Numbered from the stretch's first letter, positions 5,988 to 55,951 are shown. The stretch: 62,146 nt of DNA from a virus (IMGVR_UViG_3300047311_000415:1-62146); one strand, 5' to 3'. Notes: a model not told the origin generated them from the letters alone. Numbers and translations: made by a program.

Positions 5988-6404
5988 ATGGATAACACTT
6001 TAGATAAAGAAGAGTATGCCAAGAACATTTATGTCATTCGACATAAGTTAGCTTTGCTGAAGCCGTGTGCTGGTCGTGGTGACCGCTGGGAATATCGGGT
6101 TGGTAATTTCAATGTTGTCATGTTCGCATATGACATTGGTGATGTACCACCCCATATGGATTCTATTCTTAGATTTAAAGAAGTTGATGTGATATTGAAT
6201 GAGTACAGTAAGAATGATACTGTCTCAAGCGTTTCTCTTAGAGATGACCCGCGATTCAAAAGTTACGAGCCAATCCAATACAATGTGATTGAGTCCCCCA
6301 ACGGAAAGATTAATATAAGCAATGGGGACAAGATGCCCATTCTTCATTTGTGTGAACTTATTCGTTACCTTCATCGCCTATCCAATCTAACAGCATTCAT
6401 GTAA
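5988..6404 (+). CDS. hypothetical protein with C-terminal tail motif (...RLSNLTAFM)
   Basis: 138 aa ORF; tail resembles those of other ORFs in the window. Confidence 0.8.
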   Translation: MDNTLDKEEYAKNIYVIRHKLALLKPCAGRGDRWEYRVGNFNVVMFAYDIGDVPPHMDSILRFKEVDVILNEYSKNDTVSSVSLRDDPRFKSYEPIQYNVIESPNGKINISNGDKMPILHLCELIRYLHRLSNLTAFM

Positions 6405-6414
6405 GAGGTGTATT

Positions 6415-6639
6415 ATGGACAGCACTCATGTATATGTCATCAAGACGCTCATCAATGAGTATGGCGCACAAGAAGCCTTGCGAGGGTTCCGCCAGGCATT
6501 AATAGAGTGCGCAGATGAATACTCTGACCTGGGACTCAAGGGTCGAGCCTATGAAGCAGCCGAAGTAGCTGAACTACTTTCAGATGTCGAAGATGTCTCA
6601 GGGGCAGGTAGCCCCGCTGAAACCGATGATATAGTTTAG
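6415..6639 (+). CDS. hypothetical protein
   Basis: 74 aa ORF with a GAGGTG SD. Confidence 0.75.
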   Translation: MDSTHVYVIKTLINEYGAQEALRGFRQALIECADEYSDLGLKGRAYEAAEVAELLSDVEDVSGAGSPAETDDIV

Positions 6640-6641
6640 AC

Positions 6642-7142
6642 ATGCTGGCCATTTTTCTCACAGCGCTTGTCGCATTCTTCATCTCTAGCCTTTTTGGCTA
6701 TGTAGTCCATCGATCGCTCCATCAAAAGTGGACTGGTCGCCTCAATCAAAAACATATGACTCACCACCTGATTCTCTATCCTCCGACAGATTACCTTTCG
6801 GAGAAGTATAGACAAGCAGGTGCTGATAATACTGTTGTCACTTTTACAATAGCAGCTATACCTTTGGTACTAATCCCCATACTCTTAGGAGTTTTGGGGA
6901 TTCTACCTTTACCATTGGTCATAACTGCCTTAATTGTAATGGGTCTTATGGGATTCTTTCATGATTACCTTCATGACTCATTCCACATAAAAAATCATTT
7001 TCTTAATCGAATTCCGGGAGTTAGGAATATCTTTGCATACTGGAACCGACTGCACTACCTACATCATATAGATATGCAGAAGAACTTCGGCATCTTCCTA
7101 TTTCATTGGGATCACGTATTCAAAACCTATTGGAAGCAATGA
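6642..7142 (+). CDS. fatty acid hydroxylase / sterol desaturase family membrane protein
   Basis: His boxes HRSLH, HMTHH, HDYLH, HYLHH; NFG...WD motif; transmembrane segments. Confidence 0.88.
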   Translation: MLAIFLTALVAFFISSLFGYVVHRSLHQKWTGRLNQKHMTHHLILYPPTDYLSEKYRQAGADNTVVTFTIAAIPLVLIPILLGVLGILPLPLVITALIVMGLMGFFHDYLHDSFHIKNHFLNRIPGVRNIFAYWNRLHYLHHIDMQKNFGIFLFHWDHVFKTYWKQ

Positions 7143-7375
7143 TGGAAGAAAAGACATATCCGTGTCGCACCGAAGAGATTAGTGGAACTAGATACCACAT
7201 CAAATGGTTTCTAAACGGAGAGCTTAGAGCATCAACTTCCTGTGAAGGTAAGGAAGAGACAGATAGATATACGGCGAGCATGTCAACAGCATTGCCACCT
7301 GGTTACACCTTCACGGTAACCGAACACCCTTGGACAAATAACGTCTGCATAGAATGTGGAAGAGAGGAGTATTAA
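7139..7375 (+). CDS. hypothetical protein
   Basis: ATGA overlap with the upstream stop; C-terminal CxxC. Confidence 0.65.
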   Translation: MMEEKTYPCRTEEISGTRYHIKWFLNGELRASTSCEGKEETDRYTASMSTALPPGYTFTVTEHPWTNNVCIECGREEY

Positions 7376-7377
7376 AC

Positions 7378-7710: not shown

Positions 7711-7720
7711 GGATACGGTT

Positions 7721-9814
7721 ATGAAAAACGTTAGCATTGAAAGATATCGCAACATTGGAATTATGGCTCACATTGACGCTGGTAAGACCACAGTAAGCGA
7801 ACGAATTCTCTTTTATGCCGGACTCATTCATGTTATGGGTGAAGTCCATGATGGTGACACAGTGATGGATGATGACCCTCGCGAGAAGACTCGTGGCATC
7901 ACTATCAACTCGGCAGCCACCACTCTGTACTGGAAAGGTTCTGATAACTCTCAACCCGACCATCGCATCAACCTAATTGACACCCCAGGCCATATTGACT
8001 TCACTGTTGAAGTGGAAAGGTCCCTCCGCGTTCTTGACGGAGCCGTCTGTGTATTGGACGGATCCCAAGGCGTTGAACCTCAAACCGAACAAGTGTGGCG
8101 TCAAGCTGACCGCTACAACGTAGCCCGTATCTGCTTTGTCAACAAGATGGATAAGGCCGGCGCTAATTTCAATATGTCCGTTGACTCTCTTCGTGAGAAG
8201 CTAGGAGTCAAGGTTGTTCCTATTCAGCTTCCTTATGGGGAAGAGGAGCAGTTCAATGGCATCATTGACCTTATCAATATGAGAGTCGTTAGGTTTGACG
8301 ACTCTACTAAGGGCAAGTCATTTTCATTTATGACTATGGATTACCTTCCCGATAGTTTGATGTGTCATATTCATCGGGCTAGGGAACGTATGCTTGAAGC
8401 TCTAGCTGATGTCAGCGACTCCATCATGGAGAAGTTCCTAGAAGGGAGACTGAATGATATCTCTGTTGAAGAGATTCATGCGGCCCTCCGTAAGGGAACA
8501 GTGTCTCGCACTCTCTATCCAGTTCTTTGTGGCTCTGCTCTAAAGAACAAGGGCGTGCAGATGCTCCTTGATGCTGTCCTAGCCTATCTACCATCTCCGG
8601 TTGACCTTCCTCCTGTGTCTGGTATCAATCCAAACAATGATGAACAAGTCAATCGCCGATTGGTTGATGAGGAACCGTTGTCTGCTTTGGTGTTCAAAAT
8701 CATTAGCGAAGACACTGGTAACCTAACCTTCATCCGAGTTTACTCGGGCGTTCTGCGTTCTGGTAGCTATGTTTACAATGCTACCCGAGACGATGATGAA
8801 CGTGTCTCTCGCTTAGTGCTCATGCACTCCAGTGATAGACAGAAGATTGATGAGGCCAGAGCGGGTGACATTGTAGCTGCTATTGGCTTGAAGAATAGTT
8901 ATACTGGCGACACCTTGTGTGAGGGAAAGAATCCTATCATCCTAGAGAAGATGGACTTTCCTGATCCAGTGGTGGAGCTTTCTATTGAGCCGAAGACCTC
9001 GGCCGACTATGACAAGCTGGCCATTGCTCTACAGAAGATGCTGCTTGAAGACCCAAGCCTCAAGGCTTACACTGACCCAGAGACTGCTCAGACTATTCTG
9101 AAAGGTATGGGTGAGCTTCACCTTGAGATTGTAGTTGACAAGCTGCGTACTGACCGTGGTGTAGGTGTTACGACTGGGCAACCTCGTGTTTCCTATCGTG
9201 AGACTATCACCAAGGAAAGCGGCGCTGACTATAAGCATAAGGCACAGAATGGTGGTAAGGGAGTCTACGGACATGCCGTTATCTCCGTCAAGCCAGGCGC
9301 TAGAGGATCTGGATTTGTTTTCAAAGACCAAGTGGTCGGAGGAAAGATTCCAAGGGAGTTCATCCCATCCGTCGAGAAAGGCATCAAGAATGCTCTTCAA
9401 AACGGAATCTACTCTGGCAATCCAACGGTTGACATTGAGGTTACTCTCTTAGATGGTAGCACTCATGCAGTCGATGGTTGTGCTTTTGGTTTTGAGTTGG
9501 CTGGTTCTAAAGCTATCCAAGAAGCTGTCCTAGCTGCGGGTCCAACTGTGTTGGAACCAATCATGGCAGTGGAAGTGGTAGCACCAGGGGATTACATGGG
9601 CGATGTTATCGGTGTCTTGTCTGCGAGAGCAGGTCAGATTACTGACACATTGTCTCGTGGTAATGCGAGAGTTATACAGGCCAACGTGCCATTGAGGAAT
9701 CTCTTCGGAGTAACTACTGACCTTCGTGGTCGTACTCAAGGCAGGGCGGTACCTAGTATGGTCTTCTCTCACTACGATTACTGTTCTCTGAAACCTTCGG
9801 AGCTTGATAAGTGA
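7721..9814 (+). CDS. fusA: elongation factor G
   Basis: RNIGIMAHIDAGKTT, RGITI, DTPGHIDF, NKMD, GMGELHLEI, YRETI; 697 aa. Confidence 0.97.
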   Translation: MKNVSIERYRNIGIMAHIDAGKTTVSERILFYAGLIHVMGEVHDGDTVMDDDPREKTRGITINSAATTLYWKGSDNSQPDHRINLIDTPGHIDFTVEVERSLRVLDGAVCVLDGSQGVEPQTEQVWRQADRYNVARICFVNKMDKAGANFNMSVDSLREKLGVKVVPIQLPYGEEEQFNGIIDLINMRVVRFDDSTKGKSFSFMTMDYLPDSLMCHIHRARERMLEALADVSDSIMEKFLEGRLNDISVEEIHAALRKGTVSRTLYPVLCGSALKNKGVQMLLDAVLAYLPSPVDLPPVSGINPNNDEQVNRRLVDEEPLSALVFKIISEDTGNLTFIRVYSGVLRSGSYVYNATRDDDERVSRLVLMHSSDRQKIDEARAGDIVAAIGLKNSYTGDTLCEGKNPIILEKMDFPDPVVELSIEPKTSADYDKLAIALQKMLLEDPSLKAYTDPETAQTILKGMGELHLEIVVDKLRTDRGVGVTTGQPRVSYRETITKESGADYKHKAQNGGKGVYGHAVISVKPGARGSGFVFKDQVVGGKIPREFIPSVEKGIKNALQNGIYSGNPTVDIEVTLLDGSTHAVDGCAFGFELAGSKAIQEAVLAAGPTVLEPIMAVEVVAPGDYMGDVIGVLSARAGQITDTLSRGNARVIQANVPLRNLFGVTTDLRGRTQGRAVPSMVFSHYDYCSLKPSELDK

Positions 9815-10038
9815 GTGAAGAGAAAATGATGGGAAAACTCACCAGGGTCGCTACCGAAACTGGTGGTCTCTCTGGTGAGTCTTCCTGGTCATTTTTTAAA
9901 GGCGATATGTTCATCTGTAAGATGACTCTTACAGAATGCCAAGTAAGTTTCCCTTACCTATCGTTTGACGATATGAACACTAAAGAGTTCGGGCTTCTCA
10001 TGATGAAGAAGCTCAAGTATATGAAAGCGTTTTGGTAA
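9811..10038 (+). CDS. hypothetical protein with C-terminal tail motif (...KLKYMKAFW)
   Basis: 75 aa ORF with a GTGA overlap. Confidence 0.7.
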   Translation: MSEEKMMGKLTRVATETGGLSGESSWSFFKGDMFICKMTLTECQVSFPYLSFDDMNTKEFGLLMMKKLKYMKAFW

Positions 10039-10796
10039 TGATTCTAATTACACAACAGAGAGTGGGTCAGGCTTACGGCGAGATCCTAGCCATGCAGATT
10101 GCTGCAAGGGAGAAGGGCTGGGAAGTCCTCACTGCGCCCTCTGGCTGGCGTTTGGATGAGTCTTTGACTCAATCAGGCATCAAGGGCGTGCCCTACGGCT
10201 CTCAGACGTTCTGCGAGGTTATAGCGCAGCAGATGGGCTGGACTTTGAAGCAGAACAGTTTTGACTGGCTGTCCAGGCTACATCCCTACTATTTGAAGCG
10301 TAAAGTTGAGTTCATGACCTTGGATGAGGCCAAGAAACTCACGGAGACCAAGTTCATCAAGCCGGCTGACGACAAAGTCTTCACGGCTGGTGTGTATGCT
10401 CCTGGCACTCTCATTACTCATGAGGTTGTTCCGGGCGACACTCCTACTCTGGTTTCAGAGGTAGTGGAGTGGGATTTGGAATATCGAACCTTCGTTGACA
10501 AGAGGGTCCGCACTTGGTCCAATTATGTTTGTTTCGACCACATCGCTGACCATAGATTCTGGAATATGGTTCCGCTTGAGGAGGATCGTTACCCTCACGA
10601 CTTCGTTGATGATCTGCTTCATGATATGGAGTTTCATGACATGGGCGGACTTGTTACGGTCCCGAGCGTTATAGATGTCGGTAGAATCAAAGGAAAGGGT
10701 TGGGCCATCATCGAGACCAACCAAGCTTGGGCTTCCGGTCTTTATGGCTGCGGACCAATGCAAGTCCTGAAAGTATTGGAGCAAAGCTGTGAGTGA
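10032..10796 (+). CDS. ATP-grasp domain protein (DUF4343/R2K-like) 1
   Basis: FIKPADDKVF, EYRTFV, VIDVG, WAIIETN, SGLYG. Confidence 0.8.
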   Translation: MVMILITQQRVGQAYGEILAMQIAAREKGWEVLTAPSGWRLDESLTQSGIKGVPYGSQTFCEVIAQQMGWTLKQNSFDWLSRLHPYYLKRKVEFMTLDEAKKLTETKFIKPADDKVFTAGVYAPGTLITHEVVPGDTPTLVSEVVEWDLEYRTFVDKRVRTWSNYVCFDHIADHRFWNMVPLEEDRYPHDFVDDLLHDMEFHDMGGLVTVPSVIDVGRIKGKGWAIIETNQAWASGLYGCGPMQVLKVLEQSCE

Positions 10797-16036: not shown

Positions 16037-16960
16037 TTAGAGTAGAGTCCAGGTGGTTCCGTTCCAAGACCAAGTCTGCTGTGAAGCATAGTTGTCTGTG
16101 GCGCTGAATCCGCCGAACAATAGGACTTTGCCGCTCTGAGCGTCCCAGCACATCTGGCCATAGGTTAGTCCTGGTGGGGAGGTTGCTGGAGCCTTCTGGA
16201 GCCAAGTAGAGCCATCATAAGTCCAGGTCTCTGGTAGACGATAGTATTCATTCATACCACCGAAGAGAACCCAAACGTTGTTTGTTTGGTCATAAGCCAT
16301 TGTGGCGCCTGCTCTAGCTGAAGGAGAGGTAGCTGGAGCTTGCAAAGTCCAGGTAGTACCATCATACTTCCAAGTATCATTTTTGAATTCACCGCTGCTG
16401 ATATTGCCGCCGAACATTACTAAGTAAGAAGGTCCGCCTGCCATACAGTGGTTGATTCTAGCTGAAGGAGAAGTTGCTGGGGCCTGGAGAGTCCAAGTCT
16501 GAGCATTGCCATCCCACTTCCAAGTCTCATTGATGTACTTAGCGTTTCCACCATAACCACCAAACATTGTAACGTTTAGAGCGGTAAGGGTTGAACGACA
16601 AGCTTGAGCATCAGTACGGCCAAATGGCTTAGTAGCTGGAGACTGTCTAGCCCAGAATGTACCATTCCAAAGCCAGGTATCATTTAGATAGCCGACAGTG
16701 GAAGAGTCACCTTGACCGCCGAACAACATTACGTTGTAGCCGTCATAGCCATCAGCCATGTTAAGACGACCTGGTAGGGGGCCATTGGCGTCAATTAAAG
16801 TAGTTCCGGTGTTGGTCCAGTCAGTACCGTTCCAAGTCCAAGTTTCATTTAAGAAATTAGATTGACCTGGGTAGGCTCCTGTGTCCATCAAAACTACTTC
16901 GTTTGGCCCACGTTGGACCATAAAAGAATTTGCGCAACGAAGTGGAGTGTGAGTTGTCAT
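16037..16960 (-). CDS. Kelch/galactose oxidase-type beta-propeller protein
   Basis: About six repeats of P(S)AR...LFGG...TW.(W/Y)DG..WT; AGAGGA SD. Confidence 0.85.
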   Translation of the reverse strand: MTTHTPLRCANSFMVQRGPNEVVLMDTGAYPGQSNFLNETWTWNGTDWTNTGTTLIDANGPLPGRLNMADGYDGYNVMLFGGQGDSSTVGYLNDTWLWNGTFWARQSPATKPFGRTDAQACRSTLTALNVTMFGGYGGNAKYINETWKWDGNAQTWTLQAPATSPSARINHCMAGGPSYLVMFGGNISSGEFKNDTWKYDGTTWTLQAPATSPSARAGATMAYDQTNNVWVLFGGMNEYYRLPETWTYDGSTWLQKAPATSPPGLTYGQMCWDAQSGKVLLFGGFSATDNYASQQTWSWNGTTWTLL

Positions 16961-17887: not shown

Positions 17888-18190
17888 ATGATCAACGCAT
17901 GTAAGTTCTGCGAAAATCCAATTCCTATTCCACAGCTTGGTGATGACTGGTGGTGTCCCAAGTGCCAGAAGTATTCTATTGTCTGTTTAGATAACAGCAT
18001 TGTAGAATCAGAGACATTGCGTAACGGCAATTTCTATATTGTATTCTTCCCAGCTTACAAGACAGCCAGCATTGCATCAACTGATGATGCTGATAAGAAA
18101 ATTCTCAAATCTTTTGAGATGGATGAATTGACTCATGAGCAAGCGCTCTATTGGGCCAATAAACTGAAAACATATGTTATTTTTCAGTAG
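17888..18190 (+). CDS. Zn-ribbon protein with C-terminal tail motif (...NKLKTYVIFQ)
   Basis: CKFC...CPKC; ATG just after the tRNA. Confidence 0.75.
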   Translation: MINACKFCENPIPIPQLGDDWWCPKCQKYSIVCLDNSIVESETLRNGNFYIVFFPAYKTASIASTDDADKKILKSFEMDELTHEQALYWANKLKTYVIFQ

Positions 18191-21290: not shown

Positions 21291-21689
21291 ATGAAGTTTG
21301 ATTTACAGCTTCATTCTAATGAAGACCTAGAGTATTTCAAAGTGCTGTTTCTCCGTAATATCGGAGATGAGCAAACTCTTTATCATTTTCATGCTGATAA
21401 CATGCAGGTACGCGTTCAGGTCTCCGGATTGAGTGGCTACCAATTAGTTAGTGTCGGATTCTTTGATTGTATCAAAGAAGGGGCAACGACCTCAATAAAT
21501 CAGTTCTGCCCACTTGCTGACAGCAGGTATAAGAACTATGATGTAATCCAAGATTTTTGGTATTACGACTCTAGTAAAGCTTGGGGCTCATTTTCCCACG
21601 CTCCAGAAGAAGTAGAATGGGCCCTAGAAAAGGTTGCCGATATACTTCGTATCGTTTACAAAGTCAACAATTTGAAAGCATTTCTGTAA
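21291..21689 (+). CDS. hypothetical protein with C-terminal tail motif (...KVNNLKAFL)
   Basis: 132 aa ORF. Confidence 0.8.
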   Translation: MKFDLQLHSNEDLEYFKVLFLRNIGDEQTLYHFHADNMQVRVQVSGLSGYQLVSVGFFDCIKEGATTSINQFCPLADSRYKNYDVIQDFWYYDSSKAWGSFSHAPEEVEWALEKVADILRIVYKVNNLKAFL

Positions 21690-23789: not shown

Positions 23790-23815
23790 CATCAACACTA
23801 AAAACTATAGCAATG

Positions 23816-23838
23816 AGCCGCTCTTATGGGCGGCTTTT
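23816..23838 (+). terminator. intrinsic terminator after groES
   Basis: AGCCGCTC-TTAT-GGGCGGCT followed by TTT. Confidence 0.7.
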
Positions 23839-23845
23839 GTATTAC

Positions 23846-24526
23846 ATGGATATCAAACATAAAACTTATCAGCCCGCACTAAATTGTCCGCGCTGCAAGA
23901 TTAGATTTTTACAATCACAATATTTCATGAGCAAAGAACATAATTACGTAGATTGCGATCGTTGCGGCCACTGGCAAGATGATCGAAGGCGCAAAGAAGT
24001 GTGTGAGCAGTGTAACAACACCCGCACGACTATTGACCCCAAAGAGATTTTATGTAATCGCTGTGGTGGTTATCAACGCCCTATTGGTTCTCATAATGAG
24101 CAGTATGCTCATGGTTTAGAAGACGCCATCATAACTGGTGGATATGATTCATACCATCTGTTTGATATGACTTCTTACAAGTTTTCTATCTGTGAGAAGT
24201 GCCTTCGTGAAATGTTCAATCAGTTTGCCATCAAACCGATTGTCATAGATCGACTTGGAAGTGTTGAAGGTCCAGCGGACCCTTGGGCCGAAGATCAAGA
24301 ACAGTATGAATACCGTGTCTGGAAAGATACTGGCGGCCATCATCAAGCCTATCTGAATCGCAAATGCAATTTCGTAAAAGATTGCCTCAATAGAGCAGAG
24401 TATACCCAGCTCATTAGTAACGACTTCACAGAAGGTTGTTGCTGCGAAGAGCACAAAGAGTTATGGGGCTACGGCAATAGTAAGCTAACCAAATTCATCC
24501 CCAATGTATTGAAACCATTCCTATGA
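23846..24526 (+). CDS. Cys-rich multi-Zn-finger protein ending ...NVLKPFL
   Basis: Multiple CxxC pairs; start placed after the terminator. Confidence 0.75.
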   Translation: MDIKHKTYQPALNCPRCKIRFLQSQYFMSKEHNYVDCDRCGHWQDDRRRKEVCEQCNNTRTTIDPKEILCNRCGGYQRPIGSHNEQYAHGLEDAIITGGYDSYHLFDMTSYKFSICEKCLREMFNQFAIKPIVIDRLGSVEGPADPWAEDQEQYEYRVWKDTGGHHQAYLNRKCNFVKDCLNRAEYTQLISNDFTEGCCCEEHKELWGYGNSKLTKFIPNVLKPFL

Positions 24527-25140
24527 AATCCTACCCCTCCATTACCAAAGAAGTCAGGCAAGACATTTACATCTATGCTTTCGATAAGCTAGATGGGTCT
24601 AATATCCGTGCTGAGTGGAATAGCAAGAAGGGTTTCTATAAGTTTGGCACTCGTACTCAGTTGACAGATGAGAAGACTATGCCGTTCGGCCGAGCTATCC
24701 CGTTGATTAGAGAAAAATACGAGGAGGACTTGACGGCAGTTTTTAAAGAACAAGGTTACAAGGACGCATTGTGCTTCTTCGAGTTCTGGGGGCCAAGTTC
24801 TTTCGCCGGCAACCACAATTTTGAAGAAAAAATGGATGTGACGTTGATTGATGTCAATCCATACAAAGAGGGTATATTAGTCCCTACCGAGTTCATCAAG
24901 TTATTCGGCCACCTCGACCTACCTAAAATCTGTTATGAGGGGCATGTAACAACAGAGCTGTTTGATAAGGTAAAGCAATCAACACTTGAAGGAATGACTT
25001 TCGAAGGTATAGTCTGTAAAGGCGCAAACGATAAAGCAACAAGAATGCCGATTATGTTTAAAATCAAATCGAAGGCATGGTTAGAAAAGTTGCGAGAGTA
25101 TTGCAAAGGCGATGAGAAGCTATTTGAAAGGCTACAATGA
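24523..25140 (+). CDS. RNA ligase-like nucleotidyltransferase
   Basis: YPSI, DKLDGSN (motif I), FFEF.G (III), FEGIV (IV), MFKIK (V). Confidence 0.8.
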   Translation: MKSYPSITKEVRQDIYIYAFDKLDGSNIRAEWNSKKGFYKFGTRTQLTDEKTMPFGRAIPLIREKYEEDLTAVFKEQGYKDALCFFEFWGPSSFAGNHNFEEKMDVTLIDVNPYKEGILVPTEFIKLFGHLDLPKICYEGHVTTELFDKVKQSTLEGMTFEGIVCKGANDKATRMPIMFKIKSKAWLEKLREYCKGDEKLFERLQ

Positions 25141-26324
25141 AAAAGAATGATATGGATATGTGGAAAGACTCAGAGTTTGTCAAATTGTTTGAGCAAGTCG
25201 AGCTGAGTGCTACCACGATTGGCGCTCCCGCCCTATTCAAGGCGATGTTCAATAAGACTTCAGGTCACGTTTCAGAGTATTCCCATGAAGGAATGCTGAA
25301 GCAAATCGAAGATGATGCCGAAGATGCCACCAAGATTGAGTCAGTGAACGATAAGCTTCATAAGCGTATGCTTGAGAAGGGCGGTCGCCTGATCTATCGC
25401 AACATCAGGGCGTCTGGTGATAGCACCATCTATTTGTGGAAGGACGGCATTGTTGACCTCCAGATTACTGGAGATTATGTTAGCGTGCAGACTCTGTCAC
25501 TATCTCAGGCTTTCGTTGAGGAAGTGCGCGAGTACTTCAAGCCACAATGGTTGCCAGCCGAGAAGAAGGGGCACATCTATGCTATCGTTCGCCAGGGTAT
25601 GCACCTTAGCTTGAGCAGCATTGGTAATGCCGGCATTCCTTTGGTAGCTGATAACTACACCCAGAAGATTCAGGATGATTACAGGTTCGTCATCAATGAT
25701 TTGAATTCTGAGAGCCCATCTGGTCGCATCGTTATCATGCGTGGTCCTGCTGGAACTGGTAAGACACACTTGATTCGCGCCATGTTGTTGCAGGTCCCAG
25801 ACGCAATGTTCGTCTTGATCTCCCCCGAGGTTGTTACCAACTTGGCCGGCCCCGAGCTGTTGCCTTTGCTAATGAACTATCGTGGTGGTTCTACTGGACC
25901 AATCATTTTGGTTCTAGAAGATGCCGATCGTTGCTTGGTTACCAGAGCAGGCGAGAACATGAGCCTAATTCAATCTCTTTTGAATTTGGGTGACGGTATT
26001 TTGGGTTCGTTGCTAGATGTTCGCATCGTGGCAACAACCAATGCGGATGAGTTGAATCTGGATAAGGCCATCACTCGTCCAGGCCGCTTGTCCAAGATGT
26101 TGGATGTCAATTCTTTGGATCCATTGACGGCACAACAGATTTTCAGGCGCCTATTGCCTGATGCAAAGTTCCCAGTAGAGATCAATGGAAGCACTAATCC
26201 AAAGGATTTCAAAGTTACTCTGGCCGAGGTCTATTCATTGGCTCGCCAGAATGGTTGGAAGGCATCGCCTCGCAAAGTAGAGGATACTACTGAGGAAGAT
26301 GAGATGGAAGATTGGGATGAATAA
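25137..26324 (+). CDS. AAA+ ATPase (classical AAA clade)
   Basis: GPAGTGKT, LVLEDAD, LLNLGDG, ATTN, LDKAITRPGR. Confidence 0.92.
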   Translation: MKKNDMDMWKDSEFVKLFEQVELSATTIGAPALFKAMFNKTSGHVSEYSHEGMLKQIEDDAEDATKIESVNDKLHKRMLEKGGRLIYRNIRASGDSTIYLWKDGIVDLQITGDYVSVQTLSLSQAFVEEVREYFKPQWLPAEKKGHIYAIVRQGMHLSLSSIGNAGIPLVADNYTQKIQDDYRFVINDLNSESPSGRIVIMRGPAGTGKTHLIRAMLLQVPDAMFVLISPEVVTNLAGPELLPLLMNYRGGSTGPIILVLEDADRCLVTRAGENMSLIQSLLNLGDGILGSLLDVRIVATTNADELNLDKAITRPGRLSKMLDVNSLDPLTAQQIFRRLLPDAKFPVEINGSTNPKDFKVTLAEVYSLARQNGWKASPRKVEDTTEEDEMEDWDE

Positions 26325-26371
26325 TTATGCATAAAGGGGCAATCTAATACATAGGATTGTTCAGGAGTGTT

Positions 26372-26620
26372 ATGCAATCAGGTCAACTAATCGTAACAGG
26401 AAAAGATGAAGCTACAATTCCATTAAGTGGAATTCCTTGCGAAGTCAAAGTTCATTTCAAACATGAGCTTGAGGTAACTCCTTGCAATCCGCATCACAGA
26501 GACTGTCTAGAATATGAAGTCCATGTAAACCATCACCATAACCATCATAACAAGTTTAAGTTGGTTATCAAGTGGGAAGTATCTGGCGTACGTGAAATCA
26601 CTTGGAAAGTCTCTTACTAA
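26372..26620 (+). CDS. His-rich small protein A
   Basis: MQSGQLIVTG...PCNPHH...HHHNHHN; AGGAG SD; paralog of the next gene. Confidence 0.8.
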   Translation: MQSGQLIVTGKDEATIPLSGIPCEVKVHFKHELEVTPCNPHHRDCLEYEVHVNHHHNHHNKFKLVIKWEVSGVREITWKVSY

Positions 26621-26629
26621 GGATAACGT

Positions 26630-26920
26630 ATGCAAACTGGAATTCTAACTGTAACTGGAGAAGGAAAGACCGAGCTACCACTACGTGGTTGGCCTCGTGA
26701 AGTGATCGTGTTTTTCAAACCAGACCACGATCCAGTCCCTTGCGACCCACATCACCACCACCATCACAACGATCATTTGTCTCATCATGTCGAACATGAG
26801 GACGAAGATCGCAGAGAGCATCAAAGACCAGGCCACCACCACCACGATCGTAAGTTCTTCTTAGAGATCAAGTGGAAGGTGTCGAGTGTTCGTGAAATTG
26901 AATGGATTGTTTTTTACTAA
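26630..26920 (+). CDS. His-rich small protein B
   Basis: MQTGILTVTG...PCDPHHHHHH...KWKVSSVREIEW. Confidence 0.8.
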   Translation: MQTGILTVTGEGKTELPLRGWPREVIVFFKPDHDPVPCDPHHHHHHNDHLSHHVEHEDEDRREHQRPGHHHHDRKFFLEIKWKVSSVREIEWIVFY

Positions 26921-26929
26921 GGTGTTGTA

Positions 26930-27892: not shown

Positions 27893-27904
27893 TGGCTGGT
27901 ATAA

Positions 27905-37377: not shown

Positions 37378-38622
37378 ATGACTCGCTATAAAATGGTTGC
37401 CAGGGATTTCAATTCTAATCCCACACAATATCGTACTTGGGTAGTGGATGGTACGCCTGATTTTGACGGATATTACTATACCGGCTACAAATCAGGCCCT
37501 AGCCAGTTTACTGAAGTAGTAGCCTATGCTATTAACGACGGGTATGCTGTAGTAGATTTCAATCTACCAAATCCCACTTCTTGGACGGTAATAACCGACC
37601 AATTAGGTTGGGATTTTCCTGTTCGTAAGGTTTTGCCATTCCCTCCAGACGACTCAGCTATGTGTATCCTCGATGGGTACATCTATTTGTTTGGTGGAAA
37701 AATCACCAATAAGATTTTCCGTGCCCGAGTTGAAAATCCAGCCGACTGGATTGATACCGGAGCTACCCTACCAAACAATCTGTATGGTTCCTCCTTAGCC
37801 GTTATTGATGGCTACATTTACCTTTTTGGTGGCAACACAGGCGCCTTCTTGGGTCTTGATGCGCTAGATAACATCTACTCCGCTCCAGTCAATGATCCTC
37901 TTACTTGGACCGACCATGGGTCGCTATTGCCACGTAAGTTACATTACTCGGCACTAGGTATGGATGGCTATCAGCTATATCTATTTGGCGGTAAAGGAAT
38001 CAATAGAGCTTTAGATACCATTTTTACAGCCTCTACTACTGATCCTCTTACCTGGACTGACACCGGAGCCACACTACCATACGACGTATATGGCGCTATC
38101 CTGGCGGAAGTCAATAACAACTGGATGTTGTTCGGTGGGTTACTAGATCCAGACTCTCCAACTAACACTATTATTTCGGCTCCTGTCAGCACCCCATTAG
38201 TCTGGGGACTAACTGGCCTGTTACCGGGGTCTACCGCTTTTGGTCAGTTCGTTAATGTTGGTGGAGATGGTTACATCTTCGGACCAGTAGTAGGAACAGG
38301 AACCACTTTCACCCCTATATTGCAGTGTAACCTAAGCGATCCTAATGCTTGGGTGTATACTCAAAAAACAATTCCTGGAGTCATATCTCATTCTTCGTTG
38401 GCCGTCATTTACGATAGACTTTGGTTATTTGGTGGAAGCGGATTGACAGCAATATTTACCTGCAATCAGATTTTGAAATATGTGCCAAGCGCTCCTAAAG
38501 CAGCTAATTATGGAAACATAACTCGCACTACTGTTCAATCTACAGACAATTTGCACAGCCCATATCAGGCACTATGTATACCATGGTGGTGCACTGATTT
38601 TCCATTCTTCAATCGCCCGTAA
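37378..38622 (+). CDS. Kelch-repeat beta-propeller protein
   Basis: Repeated DGYIYLFGG...I..A....P..WTD.G..LP units. Confidence 0.85.
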   Translation: MTRYKMVARDFNSNPTQYRTWVVDGTPDFDGYYYTGYKSGPSQFTEVVAYAINDGYAVVDFNLPNPTSWTVITDQLGWDFPVRKVLPFPPDDSAMCILDGYIYLFGGKITNKIFRARVENPADWIDTGATLPNNLYGSSLAVIDGYIYLFGGNTGAFLGLDALDNIYSAPVNDPLTWTDHGSLLPRKLHYSALGMDGYQLYLFGGKGINRALDTIFTASTTDPLTWTDTGATLPYDVYGAILAEVNNNWMLFGGLLDPDSPTNTIISAPVSTPLVWGLTGLLPGSTAFGQFVNVGGDGYIFGPVVGTGTTFTPILQCNLSDPNAWVYTQKTIPGVISHSSLAVIYDRLWLFGGSGLTAIFTCNQILKYVPSAPKAANYGNITRTTVQSTDNLHSPYQALCIPWWCTDFPFFNRP

Positions 38623-42805: not shown

Positions 42806-43438
42806 ATGGAGAACAAGGAATCCTTCCAGGCCAGAATTCAACCCTACTTTAGTCCATCGGATCAGTTGGACGTTAAGCTGGCATATTGCCTTGCCAAGTT
42901 TGGGCACCGAGCCCAGACCAGGAAAGAGCTGACAGAAGGAAAGCCAACTCGTTACTTCGAGCACGTTCGAAGAGTGGCCCTTATTCTAATGGATGAGATG
43001 AAAATTATTGACCGTGATATGATCATTACGGCTTTACTTCATGACTCGGTTGAAGATACAGTTGATCTGACACCTGAACTTCTAGAACATAGTTTTGGTT
43101 CAGATGTAATAACTATGATAAAGGTACTTAGCAAAGTTCCAAAAGAAGGATACATTGAAAGATTGAATAACTGCCACAACTGGAAAGTGTTAGCCATCAA
43201 GGCTTGCGATAGATTAGATAATCTTCGCTCCTTGATGATACCAGGAACCAGTTTGGAATTTCAAAAGAAACAAATCAAAGAAACAAAAGAAAAGTATTTC
43301 CCTATATTCGACAGACTGGTTAGTACTCTATGCCCTCAGGAACACGTTGAAAACGTAACTAAGGTTAGAGATGAAATCAGAAGATTAATTGAGCGATATA
43401 GTACCATTATCGAACTTCAGGAAGGAAAAACTGCATGA
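42806..43438 (+). CDS. HD-domain hydrolase, SpoT/Mesh1-like small alarmone hydrolase
   Basis: H..Q.RK...YFEHVRRVA, ALLHDSVEDT, IKACDRLDNL. Confidence 0.85.
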   Translation: MENKESFQARIQPYFSPSDQLDVKLAYCLAKFGHRAQTRKELTEGKPTRYFEHVRRVALILMDEMKIIDRDMIITALLHDSVEDTVDLTPELLEHSFGSDVITMIKVLSKVPKEGYIERLNNCHNWKVLAIKACDRLDNLRSLMIPGTSLEFQKKQIKETKEKYFPIFDRLVSTLCPQEHVENVTKVRDEIRRLIERYSTIIELQEGKTA

Positions 43439-44028
43439 CATGCATTGTAGGCTTAGTTCACGACGGTGACGTATACATTGGTGGAGATAGTGCTGGCGTA
43501 GCTGGACTATCTATTTCTATTAGGGCAGATGAGAAAGTTTTCGGTAATGGTCCTTTTATTATGGGTTTTACAACCTCTTTTCGTATGGGACAATTGTTGA
43601 GATATAAGCTGGCGCCTCCAGCACAGACTGTTCACCAAGATGATATGGAATACATGGTCACTAGTTTCATTGATGCTGTCCGTCAGTGTTTTGCTGGAAA
43701 CGGATTTGGTGACAAGGATGCCTCCGTTGGTGGTAACTTCCTAGTTGGCTATAAAGGCAAACTGTACAATATTGAATCTGACTATCAAGTAGGTGTGCCA
43801 AGGCTAGCTTATGATGCAGTTGGATGTGGAACTGATCTTGCTCTTGGGGCTATGTTTGCCACTGAGGGTTTGAGTCCAGAACAAAGAATCAATGCGGCTT
43901 TATCTGCCGCCTCTAATTTCAGTGGTGGCGTTGCTCCTCCATTCACCATTCTTAGGTTAGAAGGTGATGAAAAGAAGAACAAACCAAAGCCTAAGCCAAA
44001 GAAGAGGGTCAGAAGGCGAGCAAAGTAA
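43435..44028 (+). CDS. Ntn-hydrolase, proteasome beta/HslV-like peptidase
   Basis: M-T-CIVG (N-terminal Thr), GGDS, EKVF, AVGCG...ALGA; basic C-terminal tail. Confidence 0.8.
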   Translation: MTCIVGLVHDGDVYIGGDSAGVAGLSISIRADEKVFGNGPFIMGFTTSFRMGQLLRYKLAPPAQTVHQDDMEYMVTSFIDAVRQCFAGNGFGDKDASVGGNFLVGYKGKLYNIESDYQVGVPRLAYDAVGCGTDLALGAMFATEGLSPEQRINAALSAASNFSGGVAPPFTILRLEGDEKKNKPKPKPKKRVRRRAK

Positions 44029-46028: not shown

Positions 46029-46318
46029 TGTTTTTGTACAATAAATTCCCTATTTATACAAAGTTTATGTTCTTTCATCCCGATGGAGATGTAGGAAAAT
46101 CTTTCAACTTCTCTACTGACTTGAATAAGGTTGGTTTGGAGTGGGATGTAGCAATTCGAAATGGGACAGGAGTAGATGTAGTATCTGAGCCTGTCACAAT
46201 TAACCATGCCAAATATGGCGCGATTACTTTGATTAAGATCAAAGCTGATGTCGCCAATGACTATCATACTGTAATTAAGGAATTCTGGGTACCAACTAGT
46301 TGCATTATTGAGACATAA
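46028..46318 (+). CDS. hypothetical protein
   Basis: 96 aa ORF with TAATG coupling. Confidence 0.65.
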   Translation: MFLYNKFPIYTKFMFFHPDGDVGKSFNFSTDLNKVGLEWDVAIRNGTGVDVVSEPVTINHAKYGAITLIKIKADVANDYHTVIKEFWVPTSCIIET

Positions 46319-46322
46319 ATGC

Positions 46323-47129
46323 ATGAGAGACAAATACCTGTGGTTTACCGATACCCATTTAGATAAAGTGGGTCCGATTAGGTTGTTCAAATTCATTCGA
46401 CACCTTCTCAAAGAGAAGCCAAAAGGTATATTCCTGACTGGCGACATCTCTAATGGTTGGCTAACTATGTGGCATTTGCGAGTAATTGCCACTTTTGTCA
46501 AGTGTCCAATCTACTTTGTGCTCGGAAATCACGATTATCACTTCTCTTCTATTGAGAAAACGCACCAAAAGCTTCGTGAGCTATGTAAAGAGTTCCCGAA
46601 TCTCATCTGGATGACAGAGGCCGGTGTAGTTCACTTAGACGAAGAGGTGTGCCTTATCGGCACAGAAGGTTGGTATGATGCTGATAATGGTAAACCAGAG
46701 TATCTTCAGTTCACTCTTGATTGGTTTTTGACGGAAGATTTCCGAAAACTACCTAACATGCAGGCGAGAATTGAGCTTTGGCGTTCGATGGCAGACCAAA
46801 GCGCTAACGATATCGTTGATAAATTGGAGAAAGCCATCGAACAGGGATACAAAACCATCTATGTGCTGACACATTTCCCTCCTTGGAAGGAAGCAACTCG
46901 TGATGTCGGCACATTTTTGGAACAGTTTTGGCTTCCATATAACGTCAATTTGCGTATGGGCAGAGCAATCAAGCATGCCATGCATGACCATAAGAAGAAA
47001 CATGTCACAGTGTTAGCTGGTCATACCCACACGGACTGCTGGATTCACGTGGCTCGTAACGTAGATTGCAAAGTTAGTAAGGCAAAATACTATGGCGAAC
47101 TACGTAACGAAGAACATATTTTCATTTAA
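46323..47129 (+). CDS. calcineurin-like metallophosphoesterase 1
   Basis: TDTH, TGDIS, LGNHD, THFPP, AGHTH. Confidence 0.92.
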   Translation: MRDKYLWFTDTHLDKVGPIRLFKFIRHLLKEKPKGIFLTGDISNGWLTMWHLRVIATFVKCPIYFVLGNHDYHFSSIEKTHQKLRELCKEFPNLIWMTEAGVVHLDEEVCLIGTEGWYDADNGKPEYLQFTLDWFLTEDFRKLPNMQARIELWRSMADQSANDIVDKLEKAIEQGYKTIYVLTHFPPWKEATRDVGTFLEQFWLPYNVNLRMGRAIKHAMHDHKKKHVTVLAGHTHTDCWIHVARNVDCKVSKAKYYGELRNEEHIFI

Positions 47130-47376
47130 CGCTATCTGTTTGATATTGTTGTGCAGCGCTATTGCAATAGCATCACCACCGGGCTATTGTGTCCTGCCAC
47201 AAAAAGATGTGACGACTGAAATAGGCAAGATTGCTCGCAGTATGCTTGACAATCCTATGGGAAGTTGTACTCCATTCAGTATTAGCGGAACAAACTACCA
47301 AGGTTGTGTTGAATATCACTGGGATAAAGTGAGAGGCAAGCACACAGGTGTAACCGTTTACAGAGAGTGTAAGTAA
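47092..47376 (+). CDS. putative secreted Cys-containing protein
   Basis: Hydrophobic signal-like segment; several Cys residues. Confidence 0.6.
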   Translation: MANYVTKNIFSFNAICLILLCSAIAIASPPGYCVLPQKDVTTEIGKIARSMLDNPMGSCTPFSISGTNYQGCVEYHWDKVRGKHTGVTVYRECK

Positions 47377-47795
47377 TGGATGACGATCTGTTTGATGATG
47401 GAATCAATGGAGAAGGCTGGGAAAGTCAGTCCGAAGTTTGGGCAGATGATTACTACGAAGACGAAAATTACCGTGAGTCTTATGATATCCATATCGCAAA
47501 TGGATTAGAGATTCAAGGCTGGCCCACCTATGGTAATTGTACGATCGTTACTGATATGTTCCATATCTATTATTGGTTGGGCTCTAATTCATTAGAAATC
47601 TATGATAAAAGAATTCCTGATGAAAAGTTTGCCAACTGTCATAAGTGTGTTCTAACGATCAAAAACCAAGACCTGTATTTCTTTGGAGACAAAACTATTC
47701 AGCGTGAAGATGGTAAATGGGAAATAGCTTGGTATACTGGTGAGCAAGTAGATCAAAAAGTTCAACGTTATCTTAATTTGAAAGCGTTTGTATGA
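47376..47795 (+). CDS. hypothetical protein with acidic N-terminus and C-terminal tail motif (...RYLNLKAFV)
   Basis: 139 aa ORF with TAATG coupling. Confidence 0.8.
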   Translation: MDDDLFDDGINGEGWESQSEVWADDYYEDENYRESYDIHIANGLEIQGWPTYGNCTIVTDMFHIYYWLGSNSLEIYDKRIPDEKFANCHKCVLTIKNQDLYFFGDKTIQREDGKWEIAWYTGEQVDQKVQRYLNLKAFV

Positions 47796-52890: not shown

Positions 52891-52902
52891 GGAGAAACAG
52901 CA

Positions 52903-53418
52903 ATGTCTAATTTGGAAGATACAGTTCGTTCAGTTGTGCAGGATTTCATCAGTCGTGATGTGCTCTTCACGGCATTGGATGTCAGCAATTCGGTTAAGAG
53001 CGCTTTGCCGAACACCAGGCATCGTGAAGTTAGAGATGTGGTTCGAACCATGTTCTCTTCGGATATCGAGTCTCAGGGCTGGGCACGCACGCCCATTACT
53101 GTCACCTTGGGTGATGGTACTACGGCAGAAGCTTTGCTGTATCATCCCTTGACTGACTCATGGGATCTGGACAACAAGTACAACACTCAACAGCGTGCTG
53201 CTACTTCGGTCCGTCTGCATCAGTCTCCTCAAATGGCAGCCGTTGGCGCACCCGCTATTGCGGTGCCAGCTTCTTTGCCAATTCCTGTAACTGCAACCCC
53301 TATGCCGAAGATTGTTCCTTCTGCTCCGGTTCCTGCCCCCACTGCTCCATTGCCTACGGCTCGTAGCCTTTGGGACCAGATGTTTCAGGTCCAGCCTTCG
53401 CTATTCCCTCGTAAGTAA
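52903..53418 (+). CDS. hypothetical protein with Pro/Ala-rich C-terminal region
   Basis: AAGGAG SD; FTALDVS motif. Confidence 0.8.
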   Translation: MSNLEDTVRSVVQDFISRDVLFTALDVSNSVKSALPNTRHREVRDVVRTMFSSDIESQGWARTPITVTLGDGTTAEALLYHPLTDSWDLDNKYNTQQRAATSVRLHQSPQMAAVGAPAIAVPASLPIPVTATPMPKIVPSAPVPAPTAPLPTARSLWDQMFQVQPSLFPRK

Positions 53419-53420
53419 TT

Positions 53421-53870
53421 ATGTCTGACAAACCATTATACTACGAAGCTCACGTAACTATTGAGCCAGTATTTGATGATAAGTTAGATAAGTTCATTGC
53501 AATTTGTAAAGCACATAAGTTTTATGTGGCCACCTTACTTATGCAAAAACGAGAAGAGGACACCAAAGAGAGATCGAAATATGACTCTTTTTGCACAAGT
53601 CACGGCCAAGATCAAAACGAATTGAAGAAGAGAATGTTTTCTCTGCTTGATGATTTGAAAGAATCATTCCAAATTTGGAGATACAAGATTGAAATCATTT
53701 CTTTGGATTCGCGCTATAACGACAAAGAATATCCTTTAGACAAATCTAAGTGTCCGGAAAAGGAAAGAAACCCACGTCCTCTTGTTGAAAAAGTATGCGA
53801 ACATCGTTGGGTAATGGACGGCCATAATGCCGGCGATCCCATCTGTTCAAAATGCTACGCCAGAGAATAA
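53421..53870 (+). CDS. hypothetical protein
   Basis: YEAHVTI...RYKIE; C-terminal CEH...CSKC. Confidence 0.75.
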   Translation: MSDKPLYYEAHVTIEPVFDDKLDKFIAICKAHKFYVATLLMQKREEDTKERSKYDSFCTSHGQDQNELKKRMFSLLDDLKESFQIWRYKIEIISLDSRYNDKEYPLDKSKCPEKERNPRPLVEKVCEHRWVMDGHNAGDPICSKCYARE

Positions 53871-53874
53871 TCAA

Positions 53875-54675
53875 ATGCGCAACATCATTCTGTATCGCGG
53901 CTCTGAATTTGAAAAAGAAGAGCTAAGCGAAGCCAATCAACTCTTTGAGTGTACCGATCGTAGACCAGACATCCAAGAGGGTGATCTTGTTATCGGTAGG
54001 TATTCGCTTTGGCCATTCTACGCAGACCAGGCCAAGGATATCGAATATGTTGGCGCTAAGTTGATTAACAACTATCAGCAGCACCGTTACATTTCTGATC
54101 TTCAGAACTATGTAATGGACCTTCGAGAACTGACCCCTCGGACCTGGCGGGACATTACTGACCTTCCAGATAAGGGGTCGTTCATCTTGAAGGGTGAGAC
54201 TAACTCTCGTAAATCCAACTGGAAGAGAGATATGTTCGCACCCGATAAGAAGTCTGCAATCGAGATTTATGCTCGATTGATGGACGATAGCCTAATTGGA
54301 CAGCAGAACATTTACATCCGTCGGTATGAGCCAATGGTTACATACATGGAAGGTGTCAATGGCATTCCAATTACTAAAGAGTTTAGATTCTTCGTTGCCT
54401 ATGGACAGATTCTGAGCGGTGGTTACTATTGGCAGAACTATGTCGATGAGTTGCCGGAAGTGCCGTCTCCAGATGAAGTCCCTCGTGAATTCTTGAATGA
54501 TGTTATCGAGAGAGTGGGCAATCAATCCAACTTCTACACTATTGATGTGGGTCAATCCATCTCAGGTAAGTGGTTTGTGGTTGAATTGAATGAGGGGCAA
54601 CAGGCAGGCTTGTCTTGCAATGACCCGTTCACAATGTATAAGAATCTAGACAAGGCTATCAGAAATCAGAAGTAA
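53875..54675 (+). CDS. ATP-grasp domain protein (DUF4343/R2K-like) 2
   Basis: FILKG..NSRK, EFRFFV, YTIDVG, WFVVELN.GQ.AGL. Confidence 0.8.
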   Translation: MRNIILYRGSEFEKEELSEANQLFECTDRRPDIQEGDLVIGRYSLWPFYADQAKDIEYVGAKLINNYQQHRYISDLQNYVMDLRELTPRTWRDITDLPDKGSFILKGETNSRKSNWKRDMFAPDKKSAIEIYARLMDDSLIGQQNIYIRRYEPMVTYMEGVNGIPITKEFRFFVAYGQILSGGYYWQNYVDELPEVPSPDEVPREFLNDVIERVGNQSNFYTIDVGQSISGKWFVVELNEGQQAGLSCNDPFTMYKNLDKAIRNQK

Positions 54676-55311
54676 TCATTCTTTCTGTTTGGCCATCGGT
54701 CCCGCTGGGTTAGTTTTATCTTCCTGTCCAACTCTAAAGTCCGGAACGGCTGGTACGTTCTGCTCTAAACGAGGTGGAGGCAAGCTAGATTGACCCGGCG
54801 GAACAATTAGAGGGTGTTCTGCCATAATCTTTCTAAGACGAAGCGCCATTTTCTTTAGATCGTCAATGCTAGTAATTTCAGGGTGCTTTAATACTGAGGT
54901 TGGCTTGAAATCAACATTGGTAACTTGAATGTGATTTTTGGCTAAAAAGTTTAGATTTTCCAAAATACTGCTACTTGGCTTGTCCAAAACGTAGTGAACC
55001 AATTTTTCAGCCGCTATATACGGCTTGTTCTTTTTGATCTCTTTAGAGATGTCAATGAGGTTCTGATAGACTTTTGCGAACATTTTGAACATCTTACTAT
55101 CGAAACCTCTCTCTTTTAGGGTAAAGAGGTCCCCTCCCATCCCGCCGATAAGAGCACGTAATTCCCAAGTAAAACGTTCATAAAAGTCAGATAGTCTATT
55201 GCGCTGATCCTGGTACTCTAGATTGTGCGGGGTATTGATAACAGTTCCCTTGCCCTCTTCTGCTAGAGCAATAAACATATCAGCCATTTCTAAGACTTTT
55301 TGATTAGACAT
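54676..55311 (-). CDS. hypothetical protein with N-terminal 'KVLEMADMF' motif
   Basis: 211 aa from MSNQ; AGGGA SD; fills the gap between plus-strand genes. Confidence 0.8.
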   Translation of the reverse strand: MSNQKVLEMADMFIALAEEGKGTVINTPHNLEYQDQRNRLSDFYERFTWELRALIGGMGGDLFTLKERGFDSKMFKMFAKVYQNLIDISKEIKKNKPYIAAEKLVHYVLDKPSSSILENLNFLAKNHIQVTNVDFKPTSVLKHPEITSIDDLKKMALRLRKIMAEHPLIVPPGQSSLPPPRLEQNVPAVPDFRVGQEDKTNPAGPMAKQKE

Positions 55312-55330
55312 TTGGTTCCCTGAGAGTAAT

Positions 55331-55951
55331 ATGAAAATATTCAATACTGTTCAAGAACTATGGAGCTATTGTGAGTATTGCCCCATTTGTGTGCGAAATT
55401 GCCGAGAGGTCTTCGTATCAGTTGGGCCAGACGGAGCATTTACCCAAGTCTATTCTCAAAAGAAAGATAATAATCTATTTTTGCAATGTACCTACAAGAA
55501 CAAGCGATCTATCTATACTGTTGAATATAATATCAACTGTTTAGACAATTCTTTTCTTGTAGAAGTGCCTAATGTGGTAGAATTACCACAAGGCGAAACA
55601 GCCAAGCAACAAAAAGTTAAAGAGGCTTTCTTTTTCTTCTTTGTTGAAGGCATGTGTAAAGAATGTCATTGCGCTTCCGCGCACAGCATGGATTTAGAAC
55701 TCGACATAGTGGATCGTAAAATCTCTAACATTGGATTAGAGCGAGAAAGTTTTTACCTCTTCGAAGGCAAAGACAAGTTTCACGTCTCTCCCATTCATGA
55801 CCGAAACGTCATGCTGGTGAGTCGCTGCTATGAAGAAGGATTAGGCTTCTCTGAAAGTGATAAAACTATCGAGTTGCCCCTGGTTAAACTTGATCTTTCA
55901 GATCAAGAAAAAGCTACTAATAAAATTAAGACACTAATTCTATTTAGTTGA
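55331..55951 (+). CDS. Zn-binding hypothetical protein with C-terminal tail motif (...NKIKTLILFS)
   Basis: CPIC...CKEC; 206 aa. Confidence 0.8.
   Translation: MKIFNTVQELWSYCEYCPICVRNCREVFVSVGPDGAFTQVYSQKKDNNLFLQCTYKNKRSIYTVEYNINCLDNSFLVEVPNVVELPQGETAKQQKVKEAFFFFFVEGMCKECHCASAHSMDLELDIVDRKISNIGLERESFYLFEGKDKFHVSPIHDRNVMLVSRCYEEGLGFSESDKTIELPLVKLDLSDQEKATNKIKTLILFS

Follow-up and report, generated by a model that had tools for sequence, protein, structure and literature searches.

Why should seven proteins scattered over one viral sequence finish with much the same tail? The question is raised by IMGVR_UViG_3300047311_000415, a record of 62,146 bases (hereafter the window, which is the whole record for that genome) with a G+C content of about 44% and genes nearly all on the plus strand. 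An initial annotation had proposed that seven proteins encoded there share a basic C-terminal helix closed by a penultimate Phe, and all seven of the C-termini that it gave proved exact on translation, each with Phe as the last residue but one. The seven genes are on the plus strand. The protein at 5988..6404 (138 aa) belongs to a 'D-x-R-F' alpha/beta family and ends LHRLSNLTAFM, ...LCELIRYLHRLSNLTAFM, with the tail codons at about 6351-6401. That at 9811..10038 (75 aa, GTG start) ends ...KKLKYMKAFW, and that at 17888..18190 (100 aa), a CxxC...CxxC zinc ribbon for which an upstream GTG at 17819 is also open, ends ...NKLKTYVIFQ. A second member of the 'D-x-R-F' alpha/beta family lies at 21291..21689 (132 aa; ...YKVNNLKAFL), followed by a Cys-rich protein with multiple CxxC motifs at 23813..24526 (237 aa; ...KFIPNVLKPFL). 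The last two are found at 47376..47795 (139 aa; acidic disordered N-terminus, all-beta body and C-terminal helix; ...QRYLNLKAFV) and at 55331..55951 (206 aa, zinc-ribbon type; ...NKIKTLILFS). Below, each protein is named by its first coordinate.

The reading that we favour, tentatively, is that all seven tails exemplify a single C-terminal signature, shared across the clade at the protein level, which is carried by hypervariable proteins and acts as a recognition tag. The shared tail itself is a protein-level feature, strongly conserved and strictly terminal, on proteins whose bodies mostly lack detectable homology to one another.

Enrichment at C-termini over internal positions, on which the initial annotation depended, holds both in the window and in a complete relative. 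Greedy calling in the window gave 114 open reading frames (ORFs) of at least 40 aa (19,723 residues); this is not gene-finder output and some are spurious. Penultimate Phe occurs in 9 of the 114, the overall Phe frequency being 4.3%. The pattern [LMIV][KT][AP]F[LIVMFW] matches five times in the 19,723 residues, each time at the extreme C-terminus and never internally, and composition leads one to expect 0.83 anywhere and 0.0048 at 114 C-termini (Poisson P(>=5) = 2e-14). Because this strict pattern was post hoc, a motif-free test was made in which every protein was compared with every other (6,441 pairs) over its last eight residues by ungapped BLOSUM62 score, with 1000 controls of random internal 8-mers. 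Five pairs scored at least 22 (controls: mean 0.35, maximum 3), and at each of five thresholds the observed count was reached by none of the 1000 controls. Four of the seven top-scoring tail pairs fall within the seven proteins. The remaining ones are the paralogs 26357/26630, which are related over their full length, 29266-30231 with 52903-53418, and a '...CE' pair, 1167-1706 (...KEKCE) and 10032-10796 (...EQSCE); the latter is the second-best tail pair, joins proteins that are otherwise unrelated and is probably due to chance. Two further ORFs with penultimate Phe, 26630-26920 ('..IVFY') and 46308-47129 ('..HIFI'), do not match the motif.

The window is, judging from its homologs, a fragment of a phage of about half a megabase, because contigs of up to 498 kb carry homologs of its proteins, the relative G001 is complete at 480,838 bp (completeness rated 100%) and the window itself is rated 14% complete. 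Orthologs of the 5988 protein occur on 12 IMG/VR contigs, G001 among them. For comparison we used five large related records, G001-G005, of which G003 and G005 are incomplete and more divergent; the window is G000 in this set. G001 was compared over 480,000 of its 480,838 bases, and ORFs called as in the window numbered 716 (151,162 residues). A loose classifier, which demands penultimate Phe, a hydrophobic residue at -4 and one or more Lys/Arg between -9 and -3, picks out 46 of the 716 ORFs, with 5.1 expected from the internal rate. Its yield from the discarded shadow ORFs of the same genome (20 of 2206) equals the background rate. A tighter nine-residue pattern is found at 32 C-termini and at seven other positions in the 151,162 residues. 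The excess recurs in G003 (15 of 433 ORFs; 3.1 expected) and in G005 (8 of 302; 2.4 expected). Applied as a control to 100 kb of Bacillus phage G, which is unrelated, the classifier marks 4 of 145 ORFs, none of them motif-like by eye.

More than half of the G001 tails (27 of 46) lie in one locus at 403.7-417.2 kb, which comprises 25 plus-strand zinc-ribbon proteins together with two 'DxRF'-family genes on the opposite strand. The array proteins (107-218 aa) have CxxC...CxxC in their N-terminal part, vary in the middle and finish with a tail such as ..TP-N-I--KLK-YLLFS; the tandem array amounts to some 25-30 zinc-ribbon paralogs. Another plus-strand member ends ..LLILLS, with Leu in place of Phe. 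When 17 of the zinc-ribbon paralogs (15-25% identity) were aligned, the only invariant columns were three Cys and the penultimate Phe. The initial annotation had also divided the tails into two subtypes, LKAF-X and K(L/I)KT..(I/L)F-X, a division that breaks down in G001, where array endings such as ..KTLRAFI, ..HHLIAFT and ..KKLSAFL bridge the two. Inside the array there is also a gene (406809-407903) whose product resembles a class-I release factor and has a GGQ motif, flanked by genes for three predicted exported proteins, namely an FGE-sulfatase-like protein, an HExxH metallopeptidase and a trypsin-like protease, all as read from the sequence.

The proposal of a shared tail further depended on homologs keeping the terminal Phe, and with few exceptions they do. 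For 21291, YKV..LKAF-[LI] closes 17 of 17 aligned sequences, namely the window protein and 16 of 17 hits (51-77% identity), the window's own database entry being omitted. A word search with the 5988 protein gathered 99 homologs, every one of which ends ...[AV]F-x, where the last residue is M, L, T, A, I, V, E, S or F. Since a word search favours sequences that keep the tail, a tail-less query (residues 1-118) was also run against 1.84 billion representatives. Of the 24 matches returned (34-70% identity), 23 end ...F-x, and the one exception, which breaks off within the helix, looks truncated. The 47376 family ends Y..NL..F-x in 19 of 19 aligned sequences (the window protein and 18 homologs), and again the last residue varies. 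Orthologs of 9811 in G001 and G004 keep the tail in both full-length matches, and those in L007/L008 also end ...KAFW. Three of the five large records carry orthologs of 17888 (there was no match in G003 or G005), all ending KKLKTYVLFQ, and this protein is also present in L005 and L015. The ending ..N[VI]LKPFL of 23813 is found in all four intact orthologs (G001-G004) and in both of those in L002/L004. The G005 copy of this gene (179116-179440, minus strand) has a TAA stop inside it, and may be broken or split into two ORFs. Finally, NK[IL]KTL[IL][LV]FS ends all five of the 55331 orthologs in G001-G005 (35-84% identity).

In each ortholog family the tail is the most conserved part of the protein. 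Over the nine positions that precede the final residue, the majority-residue fraction averages 0.99 in the 21291 family, 0.90 in the 5988 family and 0.96 in the 47376 family; over the remainder of the proteins it averages 0.75, 0.60 and 0.72, respectively. The last residue is the least conserved of the tail (0.88, 0.62 and 0.53, respectively). The register is fixed as well: exactly one residue follows the Phe in all sequences of the 99-member and 17- and 19-member sets and in all 23 untruncated matches of the tail-less query, unlike the N-terminal lengths, which vary within the tail-bearing families. Tail codons differ synonymously among 12 orthologs and also among paralogs (GCA/GCG/GCT, AAA/AAG, TTT/TTC, CTA/TTA/TTG); selection therefore acts upon the peptide and not upon a DNA element.

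An exception to this conservation is provided by three distant orthologs of 21291 (46-48% identity; those in L003 and L004 are identical, that in L005 is different), which end ..KVYNLEIIFVNEINRKTDL or ..EVYNPEVIL and have lost the Phe and/or the terminal register. The contigs that carry these Phe-less orthologs keep ..KPFL and ..YVLFQ tails on other proteins. Going by the sequences, which persist at this identity while ending ..NLEIIFVNEINRKTDL or ..NPEVIL, the fold of 21291 does not need the motif.

Are the bodies of the tail bearers homologous? The initial annotation called the proteins unrelated, with dissimilar N-termini, and this stands for most pairs, which lack detectable body homology. 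It fails for 5988 and 21291, which are paralogs by hhalign (87% probability, E 3.7e-6, 98 columns), and for 17888 and 55331, which share a zinc-ribbon architecture with each other and with the large G001 paralog family; a weak paralog of 55331 lies in the G001 array. After removal of the last 12 residues the link between 5988 and 21291 is weak but kept (E 1.2e-3, 55 columns), and the other 20 of the 21 family pairs give no match. Between the 47376 family and the profiles of 5988 and 21291 only the last 7-9 residues align, and jackhmmer with the last 16 residues removed links orthologs and one group of three, nothing else. The single paralog family that the initial annotation had named as the contrary outcome is thus found for one pair by profile comparison and is likely within the zinc-ribbon subtype. 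The profiles are shallow (Neff of about 1.9), and so the lack of a tail-less signal is compatible with distant homology.

Database searches placed few of these proteins. Neither Pfam nor PHROGs gave any family above threshold for the tail bearers of the window or for 20 from G001, and the zinc-ribbon Pfam matches of 23813 were all sub-threshold. In the ESM Atlas the best score with 17888 as query was 0.87, with no named family. A sequence-profile search of the PDB yielded only generic zinc-ribbon matches (E >= 0.006) for alignment A5 and nothing for the alignment of the 5988 family.

The structure of the tail was predicted for two of the proteins using AlphaFold2 (AF2). The model of 21291, built from the family alignment, has a predicted local distance difference test score (pLDDT) of 92.6 and the order E-H-E-E-E-E-H-E-H, and finishes with a 27-residue helix (105-131); its tail region has a pLDDT of 82 and its last two residues 42. 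In the 47376 model (pLDDT 81) a disordered acidic N-terminus and eight strands are followed by a helix at 122-138. Apart from the last two residues of 21291, tail pLDDT is 82-97 in the two models. In both models, then, the tail closes a C-terminal helix, and as their topologies differ, at least two predicted folds carry it. Neither AF2 model shows a floppy or loosely attached peptide; the tail continues a helix that is predicted with confidence. For the zinc-ribbon bearers a helical tail also seems probable, since their tails start with T/N-P-x-N and space hydrophobic residues by 3-4 positions. Foldseek found no match to either AF2 model at E <= 0.001, and VIA-align against solved structures gave a best Z of 6.0, within the range rated common.

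If the tails are a recognition tag, the signature would be a basic amphipathic C-terminal helix of the form ...[KR]-h-x-x-h-x-x-F-X-COOH, with one free residue after the invariant Phe. One common reader, encoded by either the phage or the host, would have a pocket that accepts the penultimate Phe together with the free carboxylate, and the tagged proteins would mostly be small, fast-evolving domains: the zinc-ribbon expansion, the alpha/beta 'DxRF' family and several single-copy families. We infer that a partner reads the tag, and that there may be one such reader. The consequence of binding could be tethering, delivery to a protease or unfoldase, turnover or packaging.

The closest competitor, which we rate as rather unlikely yet serious, gives the tail a structural role, as the final turns of a core helix whose Phe packs into the protein's own hydrophobic core. 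Very old and extremely divergent paralogs that have no common partner would have retained it as the piece that evolves most slowly. This fits the placement of the AF2 tails within confident C-terminal helices, the homology of 5988 and 21291 over about 98 columns, the tandem arrangement of zinc-ribbon bearers with the same CxxC...CxxC architecture and size, and the interleaving of the zinc-ribbon and 'DxRF' families in one G001 locus. Hydrophobic residues at -1, -4 and -7 extend the amphipathic pattern, and the helix of 9811 can be aligned to one that lies inside a larger protein. It does not readily explain why the string N-L-K-A-F occurs on two predicted topologies with no detectable body homology, why the chain ends one residue past the Phe in every untruncated ortholog examined with that last residue left free, or why the body of 21291 persists at 46-48% identity without the motif. 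A recognition tag is favoured over a purely structural helix end because the tail is the slowest-evolving part, its end is fixed, N-L-K-A-F sits on different folds and the motif is dispensable for at least one fold.

Several observations weigh against a recognition tag. The patterns and the classifier were defined after the tails were known, and the search that returned 99 homologs of 5988 gathers sequences by shared 5-residue words. Part of the sharing is due to descent, as the paralogy of 5988 and 21291 makes plain; for the zinc-ribbon subtype common descent is likely too, given the tandem array and the one shared architecture. Conserved Cys plus one aromatic residue would also be the expected minimal structural core of such a domain. 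In the predicted models, the confident helical tail fits an intramolecular structural role equally well. The body of 9811 matches residues 581-654 of a 1242-aa G001 protein (242566-246294; BLASTP E 3e-6), a large protein of about 1190-1250 aa that is conserved in all five large relatives and for which neither Pfam nor PHROGs gave a family above threshold in G001. Because its counterpart sits inside that protein, the basic helix of 9811 is, on this alignment, part of an older domain. Lastly, no reader of the tails was found among the candidates looked for in the window and in G001.

The 9811 gene also stands in an overlapping trio at 7721-10796: its start overlaps the stop of the EF-G gene (7721-9814), and a gene for an R2K-clade ATP-grasp protein (10032-10796) lies directly 3' of it.

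Perhaps the tails are instead membrane-targeting amphipathic helices of the type known from MinD and FtsA, which would bring diverse proteins to the host inner membrane. The tails are indeed extreme C-terminal, rich in Lys/Arg and helical in two AF2 models, and those of LKAF type space Leu, Met, Phe and Trp by 3-4 residues, several ending ...KAFW. Such helices usually keep their amphipathicity and not their sequence, whereas the phage tails have a fixed chain end and hardly vary within families at Asn, Lys, Ala and Phe. In addition, the zinc-ribbon subtype (..KLYLLFS) is hydrophobic on all faces and not clearly amphipathic, and we regard this explanation as improbable. That the tails resemble one another by chance, or because gene ends carry some conserved DNA or RNA element, is practically dismissed: penultimate Phe alone is only about twofold enriched (9/114 ORFs in the window, 67/716 in G001) and AAAGCTTT, one coding of K-A-F, is a palindrome, but the Poisson probability of 2e-14, the 0/1000 controls, the synonymous codon variation and the background rate in shadow ORFs all speak against it.

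If a recognition tag is to be read, candidates for the reader may be sought in the same genomes. The initial annotation pointed to an HslV-like peptidase and an AAA+ ATPase, and suggested that the tail bearers may be interchangeable target-binding modules that plug into one hub. The peptidase gene (43435..44028) matches the HslV family in PHROGs and its product has Thr directly after the start Met; it is present in all five large relatives, as is expected of any core gene. The second candidate is a classical AAA ATPase at 25137..26324. No link was found between the tails and either protein, and naming one of them as the hub is a guess. A complex prediction that combined the HslV-like peptidase (three copies, residues 1-178, alignment A4) with the 5988 family (alignment A2) scored 0.00 against a mark of 0.32, with no controls, and speaks neither for nor against binding. 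There is no S41 tail-specific peptidase in the window or G001 and no match to the DnaN N-domain (PF00712) in either, the control for the latter being positive in 10 of 14 genomes. Clamp, chaperonin and RNA polymerase families did not turn up among the window proteins scanned against Pfam. Kelch propellers of the KLHDC2/KLHL20 type read C-terminal degrons in eukaryotes, and for this reason two Kelch-repeat proteins of the window (16037-16960, minus strand, and 37378-38622, plus strand), which match a Pfam model of that type, are candidate tail readers by analogy.

Among known systems, the HbYX motif offers a close formal parallel. In PAN/Rpt ATPases, PA200/Blm10 and Bpa it consists of hydrophobic-Tyr-X at the extreme C-terminus and docks into pockets of the 20S alpha ring. 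The phage tails are likewise hydrophobic-aromatic-X, with an invariant penultimate aromatic residue, a free last residue and a fixed chain end. They differ in that none of the seven has a penultimate Tyr (all have Phe), that the conserved part is longer (about 10-18 residues, including a basic helix) and that the bearers are diverse proteins of 75-237 aa, mostly zinc-binding and with no AAA+ or other Pfam domain, and not ring ATPases. The phage peptidase, moreover, matches the HslV-family PHROG and not a 20S alpha subunit. In the HslUV system the C-terminal tail of HslU inserts between HslV subunits, and the Phe of HslU lies two residues from the end. A hydrophobic, Phe-containing C-terminal tail and an HslV-family Thr-1 peptidase in the same genome and in all five relatives are points of likeness; unlike in HslU, the phage Phe is one residue from the end and the bearers are not AAA+ proteins.

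Short terminal peptides on unrelated proteins are also known from the SspB XB motif for ClpX, the acidic tip of SSB, the tails of partners of the beta-clamp and T4 gp45, and the cargo-loading peptides of encapsulins. There, as in the phage, one short terminal peptide is placed on non-homologous proteins; the common hub is a property of those systems and is proposed for the phage. In contrast to these peptides, the phage tails are basic and have neither Gln-Leu-x-Leu-Phe nor Gly-Ser-Leu repeats. The beta-clamp consensus QL[SD]LF occurs in none of the seven tails, and the SSB tip is acidic with Phe last (...D-I-P-F), whereas the phage tails are rich in Lys/Arg with Phe penultimate. The phage tail bearers are also far more numerous than clamp or SSB clients, at about 40 above expectation per genome.

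The nearest published comparison is Bacillus phage G, in which a lineage-specific expansion of about 35 zinc-ribbon proteins has been described (Iyer et al. 2021, PMC7824862). These are suggested there to be transcription factors or DNA-binding proteins and not carriers of a terminal tag. Both phages are of half-megabase size and have tens of small paralogs in which a zinc ribbon at the N-terminus is joined through a variable middle to a conserved helix at the C-terminus. The phage G proteins, several genes of which we translated (NC_023719, 25-35 kb), end ...YWKENDRYLAK-LSK, with no penultimate Phe. By these translations the two expansions are analogous in architecture and not the same family, which makes phage G a second, independent case of terminal-helix zinc ribbons. 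No description of the motif was found in the literature on zinc-ribbon or gene-family expansions of jumbo or huge phages, or on HbYX in bacteriophages; the preprint bioRxiv 10.64898/2026.10.24.761521 deals with sortase signals, which are unrelated to the tails.

The remainder of the window encodes a range of enzymes. Besides EF-G and the ATP-grasp protein mentioned above, there are EF-Ts, two ADP-ribosylglycohydrolases, NAMPT, Thg1, an NAD-dependent DNA ligase and a UvrD-type helicase. Between the gene for the ..KPFL protein and that for the AAA ATPase lies an ORF of 205 aa (24523-25140) with a K-L-D-G-S-N string like motif I of nucleotidyltransferase ligases, for which Pfam contained nothing at E <= 0.001. 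GenBank phages include no close relative and gave no match to the DNA of 25137-29185 or to the 21291 and 5988 proteins, and tblastn with 55331 gave only two matches there, both with E = 6 and both in cyanophage records. Genome scans of IMG/VR and GTDB with 21291 or its alignment A1 found no relative, and a metagenome scan found five short loci.

A bolder version of the recognition tag, and one that we consider a long shot, is a viral protein-sorting code in which about 6% of ORFs, mostly hypervariable zinc-ribbon proteins and small alpha/beta binders, would carry a C-terminal address (a basic helix closed by Phe-X-COOH) for a single receptor. The receptor would tether diversifying, target-binding adaptors to one machine, such as the HslV-like peptidase, the AAA+ ATPase or a packaging or compartment gate, and the code would then be a viral counterpart of the F-box or PRANC adaptor families. 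Huge phages are rich in small proteins to which no function can be assigned, and a terminal tag provides a handle on them, tens in each genome. Through it, dozens of orphan ORFs not otherwise related come together in one system, for which a single reader is predicted. If the bodies are variable binders, they would represent a phage-encoded set of adaptors that evolves in conflict with the host. Should the tail prove structural, it still delimits several new protein families and a paralog expansion that ranks with the largest seen in a phage genome.

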